In this document: positions 14,677-26,634 of the stretch, piece by piece
Layout: each line of letters starts with the position of its first letter
Position numbering within the stretch: the stretch's first letter is position 1
Origin: Escherichia phage C6
Sequence record: MW679410.1
Strand: one strand, 5' to 3'
DNA: 64,000 nt
Notes under the pieces: generated by a model
The model's database searches: none
Told to the model about the DNA's origin: nothing
What the model saw: only the letters and a program-made list of their open reading frames with translations
Program-made: the position numbers and the translations under genes

Positions 14677-15198
14677 TTAATAACCTCGGTCTTGACGAGC
14701 AAAGTTCTCAGCATTTTTCAGGTAATACAACTTAAAGATTTCTTCAGCAGTCAGACCAAGACCTTGGAACATATTCAGAACAAAGTGCAGAATATCAATC
14801 ATCTCGAATTTAATTTCAAGCTGGTCTTCAGGAGAGAGTTCGTCAATACGACGGTTACGGAATTCACCGTGCTGAGCTTTCCAAGGCTTCCAGACGCTAG
14901 ATGCGGCTTTCTCACCATTACTCATGCCACCAAGAGAAGTCAACAGTTCACGGAATTCGTCATCAATATAATCTTTCTGGTTGCGAAGCCAATCGACAAC
15001 TTGACCTGCAGTAGCCAGTTCATCGGGGTTAGAGTTAAATTCAGATTTTTCAGTAGCCAAACGGACCTGTAATGATTTCTGCATATCAAGCATAACCTGC
15101 AGAGGGTCTTTATCTTCGTGAATCAAAGCATTAAAATAAGCTTCCTCAGCTTTATCAACACCAGCAATAAGTTGTGAGCATTCGTTAAAGTGTGCCAT
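14677..15198 (-). CDS. 56: dCTP pyrophosphatase gp56 (MazG-like)
   Basis: 173 aa; position and size match T4 gp56. Confidence 0.8.
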   Translation of the reverse strand: MAHFNECSQLIAGVDKAEEAYFNALIHEDKDPLQVMLDMQKSLQVRLATEKSEFNSNPDELATAGQVVDWLRNQKDYIDDEFRELLTSLGGMSNGEKAASSVWKPWKAQHGEFRNRRIDELSPEDQLEIKFEMIDILHFVLNMFQGLGLTAEEIFKLYYLKNAENFARQDRGY

Positions 15199-15290
15199 TA
15201 TATTTTTTTCCTTTTCAATTCATTAGTAAGTTAGATAATTATAAACTGTTAGATTAAAGCGAATAAATAATAATTTAACAGGAGGATAAC

Positions 15291-20333: not shown

Positions 20334-20647
20334 CTCTTAGATTTAATTTTATCCAGTTCTTCTTGTATTTGCATTGTAACACATTTTTCTACATGAAGCG
20401 CTAGCTCTTCTTTTCGGTCTTCGGAAGGTGTTCCGAAATCAACCGACACTTTTCCATCTTTCTCAATAACAATATTCATCACATAAACGATGTGAGCAGT
20501 GCCATCGGGTAAAGTAAGCATAATTTCCTGCTTAACAGAACCCATTGACTTACGGATTATATCTAATGATTTCTCATAATAACGAGGGTCACTAGGACCC
20601 TCTTCGGCATCTTTAACAAAATTATCTAAATCAGATAAATCAGTCAT
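20318..20647 (-). CDS. 40: gp40-position protein (109 aa)
   Basis: Between 41 and uvsX as in T4; identity by synteny only. Confidence 0.5.
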   Translation of the reverse strand: MTDLSDLDNFVKDAEEGPSDPRYYEKSLDIIRKSMGSVKQEIMLTLPDGTAHIVYVMNIVIEKDGKVSVDFGTPSEDRKEELALHVEKCVTMQIQEELDKIKSKRWWKW

Positions 20648-21821
20648 GGTCGCTCACAAAATTCATGTTTTCTAAATCGCTTTCGATGTCAGCAGCGCTT
20701 TGGGTATTTCCACCTAATTTAACAGCAACGTTCTTAGAGACACGAGAGTTAATAAGGTCGTTCACTGCATCGTCAACTTCTTTAATAGAATTAATTGCAC
20801 CAAGCTTATACTTATTCTCGATTGCTTCACGGAACGGAGCGTGTTTAAACAGCGGTCCCCAGAACTCAACACAATCGGTAGCTTTAGCACGCCATGCTTT
20901 TTCTTCTTGAACCATTTCACCCGTGGTTTCGTCAAGGAATGCACGATTATACCAACCAGCTTTAGGTTTCACTACAAAGCCGATATCAGTAGCCATTTCA
21001 AGCAATCCACTGAACGGGTCGATACCGCCTTCAAAGTTAACGGTGATAGGGAACGTTGACTTCTCTTTAACCGTACGAGATTTCTCAGCCTTCAGTGTGA
21101 AGTCATAACCGGTGAGCTCAGTACCATCTTTAACCTGGCGTTTAGAGATAAAGAATACGGTAGACGCAGAATAAAGAATACCAGTACCACCACCCATAAT
21201 CTCTTTAGGATACATTCCACCAATTTCCATAGCCGTGTGGTTAATTGCTACACAAGGGATATCTTTGATGGTCAGATAAGGTGTTACGATACGGAACAGA
21301 GATTTCAGTGACTTAGCACGAGTCATATCACCTACAACTTTCTCGTTCAAAGCATCTTCGGTTTCTTTCTTAGAAGCAGTGTTACCAATGGAGTCGATAA
21401 AGATAATAACCTTTTCGCCACGAGTAATTTCTTCTAACTGGTTAGTCATATCAACTTTAAGCTGTTCGACTGACTGGATTGGTGTATGAACCACACGTTC
21501 CAAATCAACACCCATCGAACGGAAATAAGATTCTGAAGCACCAAACTCAGAGTCATAGAACAAACAAATTGCGTCTGGATATTTCTTCATATATGCCGCA
21601 ACCATGGTAAGTCCAAACAACGTTTTAAAGTGTTTAGATGGAGCAGCAAAGATTGTCAAACCTGATTGTAAGCCTGCATTCAACGCACCACCTAATGCAA
21701 TATTCAGCATAGGGATACGAGTAGGAACTTCGTCACGACCATTAAACAATTTAGATTTGGTCAGGTCGGCAGTCATTTTAGAAGTAGAAGCTTTAATCAA
21801 ACGGGATTTTAAATCAGACAT
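20640..21821 (-). CDS. uvsX: UvsX recombinase (RecA/Rad51 family)
   Basis: 393 aa; RecA-fold ATPase; T4 UvsX length. Confidence 0.9.
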   Translation of the reverse strand: MSDLKSRLIKASTSKMTADLTKSKLFNGRDEVPTRIPMLNIALGGALNAGLQSGLTIFAAPSKHFKTLFGLTMVAAYMKKYPDAICLFYDSEFGASESYFRSMGVDLERVVHTPIQSVEQLKVDMTNQLEEITRGEKVIIFIDSIGNTASKKETEDALNEKVVGDMTRAKSLKSLFRIVTPYLTIKDIPCVAINHTAMEIGGMYPKEIMGGGTGILYSASTVFFISKRQVKDGTELTGYDFTLKAEKSRTVKEKSTFPITVNFEGGIDPFSGLLEMATDIGFVVKPKAGWYNRAFLDETTGEMVQEEKAWRAKATDCVEFWGPLFKHAPFREAIENKYKLGAINSIKEVDDAVNDLINSRVSKNVAVKLGGNTQSAADIESDLENMNFVSDHD

Positions 21822-21898: not shown

Positions 21899-22792
21899 TT
21901 AAAGGACCACGTCCTCATAACTTGGCATTTCGTGCTCAGAATGGATATGGGCACCGAAATAAATGAATTCAGCTAGACCAGGATGGAATACTAAATCAGG
22001 ATTCTCATGATAAATGATATGGGGTCTTGATTTCAGAATCTGATAATATTCAACCTTACTCGGTTTGAATTTAATAATCTCTACATCAGGGCGATAGTCT
22101 TCACGCTTAAATGAATCATTCGGATCGGTGATGTAAAGACGAGCACCTTCAGCCGCGGCTTGGTCTACAACTCTTTCGAATTGATAACATTTATCTGAGA
22201 TACGGAATGGATGGAAAATACCATCAATTTTAATAGGCGCTAGACCTTCAGAGTAACGCTCAATTACTGCCGGATTAATTACCTTTTGGTCTACAAAAAT
22301 CTTATCAGAGGATGCACCTCGTGACACCAGGACGTCTTTCTGGCATTGATTCAGGACTGTAGTATAAATCGAACGTTCAACTGAAGACACGTCGATATCA
22401 ATGAACTCATCAATATAATAACGAGGAACTTCAGGGTCCATTGTAATGTTAAAGTTGAATTGTACAGTCTGAGCACCATCATAACCTGTGATATCGGTTA
22501 CCAATCCTGAGCAGTCATAGTATTCGATTAACGAATCAACAACGAACTCATTTTCAGACCAAAAATGTTTACGAGTTTCATAAGCATTTTCTTTATACCA
22601 GAGTGGTACAAAATTCAGTTCAGGAAATAATTCAATGCATTCTTTGATATCGCTCGAATTTCTAGGATAAGCCAGATAATCACCTGGGCAAGCACGGTTT
22701 AAATGGAGTTGAAAATTGCCGTCCTTAAGGACGGCATATTCACCTGTTTCGTAACTACGCATACTGAAAATAGGAACGATAAACAAACTCAT
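21899..22792 (-). CDS. hypothetical protein (297 aa) occupying the T4 beta-glucosyltransferase locus; candidate DNA-modifying transferase
   Basis: ORF between uvsX and gene 42, where T4 has beta-gt; no similarity by eye to T4 beta-gt; function inferred from position only. Confidence 0.65.
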   Translation of the reverse strand: MSLFIVPIFSMRSYETGEYAVLKDGNFQLHLNRACPGDYLAYPRNSSDIKECIELFPELNFVPLWYKENAYETRKHFWSENEFVVDSLIEYYDCSGLVTDITGYDGAQTVQFNFNITMDPEVPRYYIDEFIDIDVSSVERSIYTTVLNQCQKDVLVSRGASSDKIFVDQKVINPAVIERYSEGLAPIKIDGIFHPFRISDKCYQFERVVDQAAAEGARLYITDPNDSFKREDYRPDVEIIKFKPSKVEYYQILKSRPHIIYHENPDLVFHPGLAEFIYFGAHIHSEHEMPSYEDVVL

Positions 22793-23487
22793 TTCAGGAA
22801 TCCTCGAACGTAGTCAAAATCACGTTCAAATACGTGTGCACTAACCATAGTATGGGAATACGTGCCCAGACCAACACCACACTGTTCAGCAATAAAGGCC
22901 ATCAGTTTACCCTGCAGATAGAAATCCAGCTGCATAACGATAGCACAGTTCTGTGAACGCATATGAGTGTGTGCATACAGACGTCCATCACGAATATAAT
23001 ATGTTACCGAATCGGTACATGGATATTCTAGGGATTCGTCAGAATCAAGGAGGGCTTGGTCTTGTTCTTGGAGAATTTGGAACACAACTCTTCGCGAGTT
23101 AGGCTTTTCTTTAAGCTCTTTAAGTAAGGCTGGGAGTTGGGCCACAATTCGAGGTCCATAGAAAGTGTTGAAGTTTGCAGGCAATACGTCACTTTTCGGC
23201 TTATCAATGAACTTAGCAACATTAGGATATTCCTTAAATGCTTCGGCGGCATCAGTACCACCAGAAATCATAAATTTCCAGAAAGATTCGGCATAATCAT
23301 AGTTGATACGATTAATGCGGGGATCGGTGAATTTGTAAGTGCTTGCATCCAGAACTTCAACTGAAGCCGAACCAATTTCATAACAACGACCGATACGAGA
23401 ATCAACTGCAAACTGTGGAGCTTCCAGGATTTCTTCGTTCATTTGCTTAAACGCGTTTTCAAAACTAACAGCGGTAATGTGTTTCAT
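22789..23487 (-). CDS. 42: dCMP hydroxymethylase-like enzyme (thymidylate synthase fold)
   Basis: 232 aa; TS-family motifs NSRRVVFQ, catalytic-Cys context YPCTDSV, MRSQN...QLD with Asp at the cytosine-specifying position; diverged from T4 gp42. Confidence 0.75.
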   Translation of the reverse strand: MKHITAVSFENAFKQMNEEILEAPQFAVDSRIGRCYEIGSASVEVLDASTYKFTDPRINRINYDYAESFWKFMISGGTDAAEAFKEYPNVAKFIDKPKSDVLPANFNTFYGPRIVAQLPALLKELKEKPNSRRVVFQILQEQDQALLDSDESLEYPCTDSVTYYIRDGRLYAHTHMRSQNCAIVMQLDFYLQGKLMAFIAEQCGVGLGTYSHTMVSAHVFERDFDYVRGFLK

Positions 23488-24020
23488 TTATTCACCTTAT
23501 TTTCAATATATTCATTCAGACGTTTTAATTCTACCATATCGACGTTAAGCAAGTTATTATGACCGTCATGGTTTAAAACTTTAAAAACATTTTTAAAACA
23601 GTCTTCATATTTCTGGATAGTTAGGTTGAACTCATCTTTGGTCAATTTAATAAGGTCATCTTCGAAGTCTTCATCCAATGGATTACGGGTTAAAATAACC
23701 TCAATAATATTGAATTCAGATTTAAACCCTTTCCAATCTTCCAATTCTACATAAGGGTCCATTTCACCGCGAAGGAATCCAGAGTAAACAATATTACTAG
23801 GATATCCACGGTCTAAGATGTAGACAAAATTAGGGTCTAAAAACTTATATAAGGTTTCGACTAAAGCCTTATCATTATCAGTCCCTATTGAAATGCACTT
23901 ACCATTAATCTTTTTAGGAAAATCAATAAGACGATATTTCTTATCAGACAAAAGTGATTCAATTAAAGTAGACTTCCCGGAATTATCCGGGCCGTCGATA
24001 ACAATGATTTTTGGTTTCAC
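23484..24020 (-). CDS. thymidylate-kinase-like dNMP kinase (P-loop)
   Basis: 178 aa; Walker A GPDNSGKST and DRGY motif resembling the TMK DRY motif. Confidence 0.65.
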   Translation of the reverse strand: MKPKIIVIDGPDNSGKSTLIESLLSDKKYRLIDFPKKINGKCISIGTDNDKALVETLYKFLDPNFVYILDRGYPSNIVYSGFLRGEMDPYVELEDWKGFKSEFNIIEVILTRNPLDEDFEDDLIKLTKDEFNLTIQKYEDCFKNVFKVLNHDGHNNLLNVDMVELKRLNEYIENKVNK

Positions 24021-24415
24021 GGATGATATGCCTTATAGGTTTCAAGAGTTCCTTCACGAACCATTTCTTTAAAGTGGTCAGGACGGATTGCTCGGTCATC
24101 GATGATAAAAGTATAACTCGGCTTATGTGTAAGCAGATTATGATATTTCAATCCAATCTTTTCAAGGTTCTTAACCAATGCAGGAACTACTTCAACCAAG
24201 ATTCGACCAGGTCCACATGAAGTCATGCCACGAGCAGTGAACAGCGTAATCTCATAACCTTCGTCATAAAGCTTATTAATCATGGACACCATTTCGGTGT
24301 CCGGTTTAAAGTTTTCGTAATCACGGTCATGGTTCCAAACCGTGATTGTATTATCGATGTCAAAACATAAATGGGGCTTATTTTCTACTCGATGCGACAT
24401 TAAATTTTCTTCCAT
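24017..24415 (-). CDS. small HAD-superfamily phosphatase
   Basis: 132 aa; motif I DIDNTIT (DxDxT). Confidence 0.65.
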   Translation of the reverse strand: MEENLMSHRVENKPHLCFDIDNTITVWNHDRDYENFKPDTEMVSMINKLYDEGYEITLFTARGMTSCGPGRILVEVVPALVKNLEKIGLKYHNLLTHKPSYTFIIDDRAIRPDHFKEMVREGTLETYKAYHP

Positions 24416-26073
24416 TGTTTGTGGAGTTCAGTAGAACCTGTAGGTTTATATTTTACACCAGTTTCTTGGTCAAGCAAAACCCACTTATCAGGACAACGAG
24501 TGATAATTTGGGCCGTGATAGGGTCACGAACTTCATCGACGAATTCACCTGTAATAAGCTTACGCTTGCGAGGATGCCGCTTCAGCAGCACACTCAGTTG
24601 ATATAAACCATTGTAATAAGCACCCAGAGCTTTCAGAGGGTTATTTTTAAAGTAACCTGCCAATGCCATCCAGATAACAGCAATCCAGAGCTTGTGCTTA
24701 AATGTACACATTGGAATATCATCTAAAGGCATAACCTTTTCAATATCAACGAATACACGAGTTCCGTTACGAGTTAAGCCACCCCATAGAGGGTCAGAGT
24801 TAAATTTGTCATACCCATCGATAGAATAAAGCACCTTAGCTTCATCATAAATCGCAGGGCCTTTAGAACTATTACCAAAATAACCACGTGGGTCGATGAT
24901 TTTAATATCACCTTCGTCCGACAACATAATATTACTGTAGTGCGGGTCACCGTGAATAAGTTGGTACGGTTCTTTATGTTCAGACAGAATTTCTAAGGCG
25001 TGGCGAAGAAGTTTTTCAGGGTCGCCTACCTTAAAGTCATTGACATGGGTAATACCCTGTGGAGCAAAGCCTTCAATCAATCCAGCAATAGAAGCATTAC
25101 GAATAAGGACCTTGTCCAATACTTCTTTCTTAACATCGGAATACCATTGCTCATCGGATGGATTATCGATAGTCCCACCGAATGAACGTAATGCACTAAT
25201 AACCTTATAAACCATGAGGACTTTAGTTTCTTTAGACATGAACCGATAGGCATCTGCCATAGTACGACCAAAGATACGTTCCATTTTAATGAATTCACCT
25301 GGAGCAAAGTCTACAATGCTCGGAACGAATTCAGAATCAATAGAATTATACCAATTGATTTCTTTAGATTGGATTTCTTTACCTAATTCGTTGGTAGGTA
25401 CTTTAATAGCCAGATTCTCAGTGAACTCTAATTTATTAAATTCACGGTTAATTTCGGATTCTTCATGGGCCTTAGCCAGTTTCAGTTTGTCACCGACATC
25501 AACTACAAAGTCTAGCTTACGTTCGGTCAAATGGACCATTGAATCCAGGTTGTCGGCAAGGTCTTCACCATAATTAGAGCGGTTGAAACCTGTCCAATTA
25601 GCCACCTGATACAAACCAACCACACCGCCACCGGTACCAATTTCACGCAGGTACGGTTCTTCAAATGTAAAACGACAGTCAGTCCCGTAGGTATAACAGT
25701 AGTCGTTATCCCACTCAACTTTATGACCCTCAGGAATGATGTCACACCAGTTAAACAGGACATTGTGCCCGATAATATCTTCAGCAATGCAATCAATAGC
25801 ATGAGCTGAACCATTGGCGACATCTACGTTACGAATAGTGAATTTAGGCTTATCACTATTAATCATGTTAATGGATTTAATGTAACCCTTAACGAGGTCA
25901 TTAAATTTGCTGTGAATAACCAGAATAATTTCATCTGATTGATTACTATACAAATCATACAAATGTTTTAATACAGTATGTTGTTTGTAGTTAACCAGTA
26001 CCTTCGGGATTTCGTTAGTAATTGGATACAACCGTGAGCCAAGACCCGCGCCTAAAATAACAACCTTTTTCAT
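24400..26073 (-). CDS. bifunctional sugar-1-phosphate nucleotidyltransferase (N-terminal) and APH/choline-kinase-like sugar kinase (C-terminal)
   Basis: Start moved to MKKVVILGAGLGSRLYPIT (GxGxR NTP-transferase motif; GAGGA SD); C-terminal HGDPHYSNIML...DIKIIDPRG is the catalytic loop of the APH/ChoK/MtnK kinase family. Confidence 0.8.
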   Translation of the reverse strand: MKKVVILGAGLGSRLYPITNEIPKVLVNYKQHTVLKHLYDLYSNQSDEIILVIHSKFNDLVKGYIKSINMINSDKPKFTIRNVDVANGSAHAIDCIAEDIIGHNVLFNWCDIIPEGHKVEWDNDYCYTYGTDCRFTFEEPYLREIGTGGGVVGLYQVANWTGFNRSNYGEDLADNLDSMVHLTERKLDFVVDVGDKLKLAKAHEESEINREFNKLEFTENLAIKVPTNELGKEIQSKEINWYNSIDSEFVPSIVDFAPGEFIKMERIFGRTMADAYRFMSKETKVLMVYKVISALRSFGGTIDNPSDEQWYSDVKKEVLDKVLIRNASIAGLIEGFAPQGITHVNDFKVGDPEKLLRHALEILSEHKEPYQLIHGDPHYSNIMLSDEGDIKIIDPRGYFGNSSKGPAIYDEAKVLYSIDGYDKFNSDPLWGGLTRNGTRVFVDIEKVMPLDDIPMCTFKHKLWIAVIWMALAGYFKNNPLKALGAYYNGLYQLSVLLKRHPRKRKLITGEFVDEVRDPITAQIITRCPDKWVLLDQETGVKYKPTGSTELHKQWKKI

Positions 26074-26133
26074 TATCTGTTCCTCAAGTGAATGTAGGTA
26101 CATTATACACTATTTTTAATAAATTGGTATTGC

Positions 26134-26634
26134 TTAAATCTTATCTTTACCGATTTCAATACACTGTTCTATTGCCGCCGGTACTTTGGTCTTGAGCTTA
26201 TTGATTTGTTTCTTATAATCACGGGCCTTATCAAAGCTTTCGGTTTCGAGCATTTCGTAATAACGAGCCTCATGGATGGAAATCTGTAGATTGATATGAT
26301 TTACGCACATCGCATACAGTTTCTGTTTTTTGTACAAATCGTCTTGACGCTTCATTTCTGCCTGGTGTTTGGCTAGTACCGCTTCACGCTTGGACTCTTG
26401 TTCACGTTGGAATTCAATTTCCCTTTGAGCATATTTTGCACAGTTATTACCGCATTGATTATTAGCTCGGGTATACACAAGTCCAGAACCTGCACGGAAT
26501 TTCATTTCGCCATCGAATTGTTTCTGTTCAGCTGCGATACGAGCTTTACCAACTTCATCAGCCGAAACTGCATCACCATATTGGACCGCGCAACCTGATA
26601 GGAGCATACTCATTGCGATAATTAACTTTTTCAT
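26134..26634 (-). CDS. putative lipoprotein (166 aa)
   Basis: Signal peptide with lipobox LLSGCA; coiled-coil-like remainder. Confidence 0.65.
   Translation of the reverse strand: MKKLIIAMSMLLSGCAVQYGDAVSADEVGKARIAAEQKQFDGEMKFRAGSGLVYTRANNQCGNNCAKYAQREIEFQREQESKREAVLAKHQAEMKRQDDLYKKQKLYAMCVNHINLQISIHEARYYEMLETESFDKARDYKKQINKLKTKVPAAIEQCIEIGKDKI

Follow-up and report, generated by a model that had tools for sequence, protein, structure and literature searches.

The stretch of DNA analysed here, hereafter called the window, comprises 64,000 nucleotides of Escherichia phage C6 (sequence record MW679410.1). At positions 22789-24020 it contains two open reading frames (ORFs), which encode a protein of the thymidylate synthase (TS) fold and a P-loop kinase. 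Both ORFs lie exactly where an earlier note on this sequence had placed them and are on the minus strand. Because both genes are on that strand, the kinase gene directly precedes the TS gene on its 5' side, whereas the note had placed it downstream. By nucleotide sequence the window is assigned to a Dhakavirus, i.e., a JS98/IME08-like relative of T4. The 4.4-kb locus around the two genes is 95-97% identical to those of the Dhakaviruses AnYang, IME08, IME341, MX01, Bp7 and JS98 relatives, and the window corresponds to approximately 1-63 kb of the genome of IME08, a 96%-identical Dhakavirus. The gene order in the window is of the T4 type (DNA polymerase, imm, the slot of gene 42, uvsX, 40 and 41), and inspection of the ORFs places all long ones between 20.3 and 27 kb on the minus strand. 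In the order of transcription, the genes for an AfhE-like kinase/nucleotidyltransferase, an AfhF-like phosphatase, the P-loop kinase, the TS-fold protein (a predicted hydroxylase) and a predicted arabinosyltransferase form a five-gene chain, of which the four junctions, read from the sequence, all overlap (TAATG, GTGA, ATGA and ATGA; Table 1). All five genes are homologous to those for RB69 gp45-gp53, and the kinase and the hydroxylase are translationally coupled via their ATGA overlap.

The TS-fold protein is predicted to be a deoxycytidine monophosphate (dCMP) 5-hydroxylase, not a dCMP hydroxymethylase as the earlier note had proposed. By BLASTP it is 79% identical to RB69 gp48 over its full length (E = 1e-144), a value that also holds for HY126 AfhB, and 25% identical to T4 gp42 (E = 8e-11), and it is thus as clearly diverged from T4 gp42 as the note had remarked. 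The top PDB sequence matches are 9IQU and 9IQC/9IR2 (E = 1.5e-125), among whose titles, obtained through Foldseek, are 'phage HY126 dCMP hydroxylase-AfhB with substrate dCMP' and 'Monooxygenase dependent on riboflavin with dCMP and FAD'; the HY126 AfhB sequence in the PDB is 98.7% identical to RB69 gp48. The match to Pfam Thymidylat_synt is far above chance (E = 4.8e-14), but with the NCBIfam TS equivalogs, whose cut-offs range from 108 to 427 bits, the protein reaches no more than 41-63 bits, which leaves it outside ThyA proper. A single-sequence AlphaFold2 (AF2) model of the protein had a predicted local distance difference test score (pLDDT) of 45 and was not used as a structure. RB69 gp48 and DLP3 gp80 convert dCMP to 5-hydroxy-dCMP (5hodCMP) with oxygen from 18O2 and a bound flavin, Asn at the position of ThyA residue 169 is diagnostic of such enzymes, and nine further homologs with D169N all made 5-hydroxydeoxycytidine (5hodC) (Lee et al., NAR 2026, PMC13326640).

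Residues of the window protein were numbered from an alignment with E. coli ThyA, the sequence of which is identical to PDB 1AOB at 264/264 positions, T4 gp42 and RB69 gp48. In this alignment E154, C157, N180 and D188 of the window protein correspond to ThyA L143E, C146, D169N and N177D. N180, which lies within MRSQN, is therefore the Asn at ThyA-169 of Lee et al., and the former folate site also carries W80A and G173V (ThyA numbering). E143, C146, N169, D177, A80 and V173 are all the same in RB69 gp48. The motifs that the earlier note had quoted are present as well: YPCTDSV holds the catalytic Cys157, SRR is S131-R132-R133 and equivalent to ThyA R126/R127, and D188 at the end of MQLD aligns with ThyA N177 and T4 gp42 D179, so that the Asp is indeed at the cytosine-specifying position. 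Asp at ThyA-177 argues for dCMP as the substrate. D188 and C157 are common to gp42-type enzymes and hydroxylases and do not discriminate between them. At positions 169, 80 and 173 the residues of the window protein are N, A and V. D169 is present in every hydroxymethylcytosine (hmC)- and TS-type enzyme of the alignment, and W/Y80 and G173 in most of them, including T4 gp42; a single hmC-type homolog has H at 80 as well as at 173. Together with 79% identity to proven hydroxylases, these three residues argue that the product would be 5hodCMP and not hydroxymethyl-dCMP; its flavin- and O2-dependent formation, shown for the homologs RB69 gp48 and AfhB, is predicted for the window protein.

A diverged dCMP hydroxymethylase, equivalent in function to gp42 and serving a phage with hmC DNA, would agree with the position of the TS-fold gene, which is that of gene 42 between DNA polymerase/imm and uvsX, with the retained Cys146, Arg166/Ser167, R126/R127 and Asp177, with the annotation as such in many public records and with the 2018 report of arabinosyl-hmC in RB69 (PMC6024577). 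The 2018 assignment has since been corrected to a sugar that is ether-linked to 5-hydroxycytosine (5hoC) with oxygen from O2, the crystal-structure titles speak of a dCMP hydroxylase and a flavin-dependent monooxygenase, and the sequence identities and signature residues described above lead us to reject the hydroxymethylase, which we regard as extremely improbable. T4 gp42 and hydroxylases of the window type share the fold, the genomic slot, the substrate-specifying Asp and the catalytic Cys, and they differ in the cofactor and the product, which are methylene-tetrahydrofolate and a 5-CH2OH group for gp42 and flavin/O2 and a 5-OH group for the hydroxylases.

The kinase encoded upstream is of the RB69 gp45 type (37% identity, E = 1e-34). 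As the earlier note had recognized, it has a P-loop (GPDNSGKS) and a DRY-like motif (LDRGY), and it matches PHROG 761, named 'thymidylate kinase' (E = 7e-40). An AF2 model based on eight relatives (pLDDT 85) displays the fold of thymidylate kinases (TMPKs), with the P-loop and the DR(Y/H/F) motif of the nucleoside monophosphate (NMP) site, and its best structural matches are TMPKs. In a comparison of the kinase family profile with PDB sequences, SPbeta YorR (1.3e-6) and yeast TMPK (2.4e-4) were found, and the alignments pair the P-loop, the FP[KE] motif and the DR...S..Y motif. Identity to TMPKs of known structure (vaccinia A48R, 2V54; S. aureus, 4DWJ; yeast, 3TMK) and to YorR (2AXP/3KB2) is 13-17%, and the window kinase is about 30 residues shorter; its family also has an invariant GPDNxGK[ST]T P-loop, whereas eukaryote-type TMPKs have GxDRxGK. 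The family is small: when 1.84 billion representatives were searched exhaustively, 477 proteins matched with E <= 1e-3, a number that falls to 20 with E <= 1e-30, and a word-indexed protein search yielded only 9 relatives. The kinase is predicted to be functional, and its gene is under purifying selection, with a ratio of nonsynonymous to synonymous substitution rates (dN/dS) of 0.056 for comparisons inside the genus and about 0.1 for those across genera; the neighbouring genes (dN/dS 0.013-0.08) are under somewhat stronger constraint. Previously, RB69 gp45 was given only as a 'nucleotide kinase' (PMC13326640), and a 2021 survey had recorded that RB69p045 is homologous to thymidylate kinases and presumably has a part in the modification (PMC8056088).

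A tblastn search for a homolog of T4 gp1, the kinase with the same proposed job of phosphorylating modified dCMP, found none within the window. Its close relative IME08 keeps a gene 1 homolog with 51% identity to T4 gene 1; it lies at 72.1-72.9 kb, beyond the region to which the window corresponds, and the window kinase is therefore an extra one, as the earlier note had supposed. The window kinase and gp1 resemble each other in the P-loop only (BLAST E = 0.45; hhalign, 24 columns, probability 9%). Likewise, the family hidden Markov model (HMM) has no match to M6 gp54, a proven 5-hydroxymethyluracil DNA kinase (5-HMUDK), at E <= 10, and hhalign aligns 30 P-loop columns only. With similarity confined to the P-loop, the kinase was rejected as a relative of either gp1 or 5-HMUDK.

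The kinase gene is closely associated with genes of the TS fold. When viral-contig loci were collected with the kinase, a TS-fold gene adjoined it in 23 of 25. When they were collected with the hydroxylase, all 47 full-length IMG/VR homologs carried E143/N169/D177, and 45 of the 47 loci encode the kinase no more than 6 kb away on the same strand, the other two being cut by contig ends. Among cultured phages, the counts of kinase and hydroxylase per genus are almost 1:1 (176/176 for Escherichia, 57/57 for Acinetobacter and 15/15 for Shigella phages). The arrangement is conserved in hundreds of T4-like phages, and a dedicated kinase at this locus is thus not unusual, contrary to the earlier note; the idea that an adjacent kinase signals a non-canonical nucleotide has, in turn, been borne out. 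The usual order, which is also that of RB69-type genomes, is hydroxylase-transferase-kinase, whereas the kinase directly before the hydroxylase with a 4-nucleotide overlap is specific to Dhakavirus.

Could the kinase be an ordinary thymidine monophosphate (dTMP) kinase, or a broad deoxynucleoside monophosphate (dNMP) kinase, the role of which is to increase the supply of nucleotides without any special link to the modified base? Its closest structures, its P-loop and DR motif and the name 'thymidylate kinase' in both public annotation and PHROG would all agree with such a role. The phage already has gp1 and thymidine kinase, the host has Tmk, and the presence of the kinase tracks the dCMP-modifying TS homolog almost one-to-one; it is missing from T4's own 42 region. 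In addition, one natural in-frame fusion of the kinase and a TS-like protein exists (P0065, with D143/D169/D177), and the window kinase scores 19.4 bits on the dTMP-kinase equivalog TIGR00041, the cut-off of which is 83.25 bits. We consider an ordinary nucleotide-supply kinase very unlikely.

The partner of the kinase is not always a hydroxylase and the accompanying sugar genes are not always the same. Kinase homologs with 28-36% identity are directly upstream of hmC-type TS homologs in eight IMG/VR loci (L021-L028), where the TS homologs mostly have D143 and all have D169/D177; those of L025, L026 and L028 reach about 50% identity to T4 gp42, and L023 and L024 additionally encode a homolog of T4 beta-glucosyltransferase. 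The pair of kinase and TS is therefore not restricted to 5hoC phages. The kinase is also kept in loci that lack homologs of AfhE, AfhF and the arabinosyltransferase and have NAD-dependent sugar epimerase/dehydratases instead. In six such IMG/VR loci (L071-L074, L079 and L084), the gene of a hydroxylase-type TS (E143/N169/D177) precedes, in this order, those of a 430-450-amino acid protein without a Pfam match, the kinase and one or two epimerase/dehydratases, and these loci may place a different sugar on the same 5hoC core. The kinase thus tracks the base-modifying enzyme and not the sugar pathway, which supports a nucleotide-level role on modified dCMP. In Rhizobium phage RL38J1 (L086, 1834-6269), the order is TS gp216, glycosyltransferase gp215 and TMPK-like kinase gp214. 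The last is a remote relative of the window kinase (hhalign probability 78%, E = 1.8e-5). RB69 gp45, DLP3 gp78 and RL38J1 gp214 have cluster membership in common with the window kinase and differ from it in their position within the cluster, gp214 following TS and glycosyltransferase as in RB69-type clusters.

We are fairly confident that the locus represents the nucleotide-level core of the known T4-like cluster for 5hoC arabinosylation in its Dhakavirus form, as judged from the sequences; Dhakaviruses are named among the genera with an arabinosyl-5hoC cluster (PMC13326640). From close homology, the hydroxylase Cys would activate C6 of dCMP, and flavin and O2, not methylene-tetrahydrofolate, would install the C5 hydroxyl to give 5hodCMP, which would then be converted to the diphosphate and, by host nucleoside diphosphate kinase, to the triphosphate and be incorporated in place of dCTP. 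The gene 56 dCTPase would supply dCMP and remove dCTP as an earlier step of this pathway, a role taken from T4 gp56 and from the dCTPase in Table 1 of PMC13326640. By homology to HY126, the AfhE-like and AfhF-like enzymes would convert arabinose-5-phosphate to uridine diphosphate (UDP)-arabinofuranose: AfhE phosphorylates arabinose-5-phosphate and then makes UDP-arabinofuranose, and AfhF removes the 5-phosphate (He et al., as reported in PMC13326640). The 297-amino acid transferase, by homology to RB69 gp46:47, would attach arabinose to the 5-OH in DNA. The 178-amino acid kinase may phosphorylate the C5-modified dCMP from its TS-fold neighbour in parallel with a gp1-type dNMP kinase, with co-expression of the pair ensured by the overlap of stop and start codons.

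For the kinase itself, we lean slightly towards a minimal TMPK-fold NMP kinase that acts on 5hodCMP. Several observations weigh against this assignment. The RB69 gp1 homolog gp159 phosphorylates 5hodCMP to the diphosphate (5hodCDP) in vitro, and co-expression of gp159 and gp48 suffices to put 5hodC into DNA in E. coli (PMC13326640), so that an extra kinase is not strictly required for that step; nor is there support for the suggestion of the earlier note that the modified nucleotide may be a poor substrate for the general dNMP kinase. In the literature covered, neither enzymology of RB69 gp45-type kinases nor data on the composition of Dhakavirus DNA were found. The window kinase is below the PF02223 threshold (15.3 versus 27 bits), which the distant family members of L021 and L025 pass (27.8 and 29.1 bits), and the TIGR00041 score given above argues not only against an ordinary dTMP kinase but also against this assignment. 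The predicted NMP-binding loop (residues 37-45) is of low confidence in the AF2 model, from which base specificity is therefore unreadable, and HMM alignments to Candida and vaccinia TMPKs disagree around the region of TMPK Phe72/Arg76, which bears on specificity for thymine or cytosine. In RL38J1, gp219 is annotated as a dNMP kinase and is encoded 1.4 kb upstream, with a hydrolase and an HNH endonuclease between it and TS. Finally, about eight remote family representatives carry a fused HhH-GPD-like domain, and another carries a uracil-DNA glycosylase (UDG)-like domain; the fusion proteins, including that with TS, are 314-357 amino acids long (P0041, P0042, P0044, P0048, P0053, P0058, P0060, P0061, P0074 and P0065).

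The fusions to HhH-GPD-like or UDG-like domains would suit a kinase that acts on DNA after replication in the manner of 5-HMUDK, one form of a further explanation in which the substrate is not a nucleotide; the other form is a kinase of, e.g., a sugar phosphate. Phage clusters for thymidine hypermodification contain P-loop DNA kinases that are directed at bases, are similar in size and are paired with HhH glycosylase-like transferases (PMC8989533), and the kinase gene follows the DNA glycosyltransferase gene in most genomes. The HhH-GPD fusions have no BLAST similarity to M6 aGPT-Pplase, and no kinase-HhH-GPD fusion was found in viral contigs; of three metagenome loci with such fusions, the only long one is truncated by the end of its contig, and a replication module is all that it shows. 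A DNA substrate is opposed by the P-loop-only resemblance to M6 gp54, by the TMPK-type DR...S..VY motif that the family keeps at the NMP site and by the free 5-OH, which needs no phosphorylation for glycosyl transfer. Retention of the kinase when the sugar pathway changes argues against a sugar substrate, and AfhE already accounts for the arabinose kinase step. Either of the two forms seems to us unlikely.

A broader and more tentative proposal, which we think has perhaps one chance in three, is that the minimal TMPK-fold protein, far from duplicating gp1, is the ancestral dedicated kinase of a mobile core, either specific for C5-modified dCMP (here 5hodCMP) and rejecting dCMP or, more unexpectedly, acting on the modified base in DNA, to which its HhH-GPD-fused relatives might point. 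The proposed three-gene core, consisting of a TS-fold dCMP modifier, the first DNA glycosyltransferase and the kinase, would then move between phage families.

Table 1. Coordinates of the hydroxylase-kinase locus and associated features in the window.
Feature	Position	Strand	Remarks
Predicted TS-fold dCMP 5-hydroxylase, RB69 gp48 / HY126 AfhB ortholog	22789-23487	-	232 amino acids
TMPK-fold P-loop kinase, RB69 gp45 / DLP3 gp78 ortholog	23484-24020	-	178 amino acids; GTG start
ATGA overlap, kinase stop/hydroxylase start	23484-23487	-	AAGGTG 5 nucleotides upstream of ATG
GTGA overlap, phosphatase stop/kinase GTG start	24017-24020	-	Read from the sequence
HAD-type phosphatase, RB69 gp51 / AfhF-like	24017-24415	-	132 amino acids; true start probably ATG at 24400
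Bifunctional sugar-1-phosphate nucleotidyltransferase and APH-type kinase, RB69 gp52:53 / AfhE-like	24400-26103	-	567-amino acid ORF; start probably M11, 26073
Predicted DNA arabinosyltransferase 1, RB69 gp46:47 ortholog	21899-22792	-	297 amino acids; start overlaps hydroxylase stop (ATGA)
uvsX	20640-21821	-	Short gap after arabinosyltransferase gene
Gene 56 dCTPase homolog	14680-15204	-	98% identity to IME08 gp56 (tblastn)
166-amino acid ORF, PHROG 1754 (function unassigned)	26134-26634	-	Between imm and the modification cluster

The other genes of the chain are those predicted for the sugar. The AfhE-like protein combines Pfam NTP_transferase (residues 13-110) and APH (residues 356-427) domains and is 41-44% identical to RB69 gp52 and gp53, with its alignment to PHROG 4098 beginning at residue 11. 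The AfhF-like protein, a HAD phosphatase with 63% identity to RB69 gp51, matches the NCBIfam models for capsule-biosynthesis phosphatase and HAD-IIIA below their curated cut-offs and is, by homology, a putative arabinose-1,5-bisphosphate 5-phosphatase. The longest-ORF starts of these two genes are probably too far upstream, as judged from the RB69 orthologs and the PHROG alignment, and at the TAATG junction the phosphatase ATG overlaps the stop of the preceding gene. The predicted arabinosyltransferase is 69% and 64% identical to RB69 gp47 and gp46, respectively, and 24.5% identical (E = 4e-9) to RL38J1 gp215, the first glycosyltransferase of the RL38J1 cluster. Scans of 21.7-26.9 kb for promoters and terminators gave counts equal to the shuffled expectation. 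The product of the 166-amino acid ORF, which is conserved in Dhakaviruses, begins with MKKLIIAMSMLLSGC, a sequence that resembles a lipoprotein signal with a lipobox.

In its genomic surroundings the window hydroxylase agrees with RB69 gp48, HY126 AfhB and DLP3 gp80: the interval from gene 43 to uvsX also holds the genes for AfhE/AfhF-like proteins and an arabinosyltransferase. In tblastn searches of the window and the complete IME08 genome, no homolog was found of the arabinose-5-phosphate isomerase (RB69 gp55), the U32-peptidase-like gp50, gp49 or the second arabinosyltransferase (RB69 gp3). By gene content, the Dhakavirus cluster is a reduced, minimal version of the RB69/HY126 cluster. The missing isomerase and second arabinosyltransferase predict mono-arabinosyl-5hoC and reliance on the host for the supply of arabinose-5-phosphate, for which E. 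coli has the isomerases KdsD and GutQ.

The arabinosyl-5hoC system became known in 2025-26 through Lee et al., He et al. and Mahler et al., with the genus named there, and the locus of the window lies wholly within this known kind. It illustrates how a reading at the level of single residues can mislead: the Asp for cytosine specificity is present, yet D169N marks the switch from folate-dependent hydroxymethylation to flavin-dependent hydroxylation, a chemistry that was not recognized until 2025-26. Annotation is affected too, since public records give wrong names to the entire Dhakavirus cluster: the arabinosyltransferase is called 'RNA polymerase binding protein', the HAD phosphatase 'phosphoheptose isomerase' and the hydroxylase 'thymidylate synthase' or 'dCMP hydroxymethylase'. 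For phage therapy and phage defence, coliphages of the JS98/IME08 type are predicted to carry arabinosyl-5hoC in their DNA, probably in the mono-arabinosylated form.

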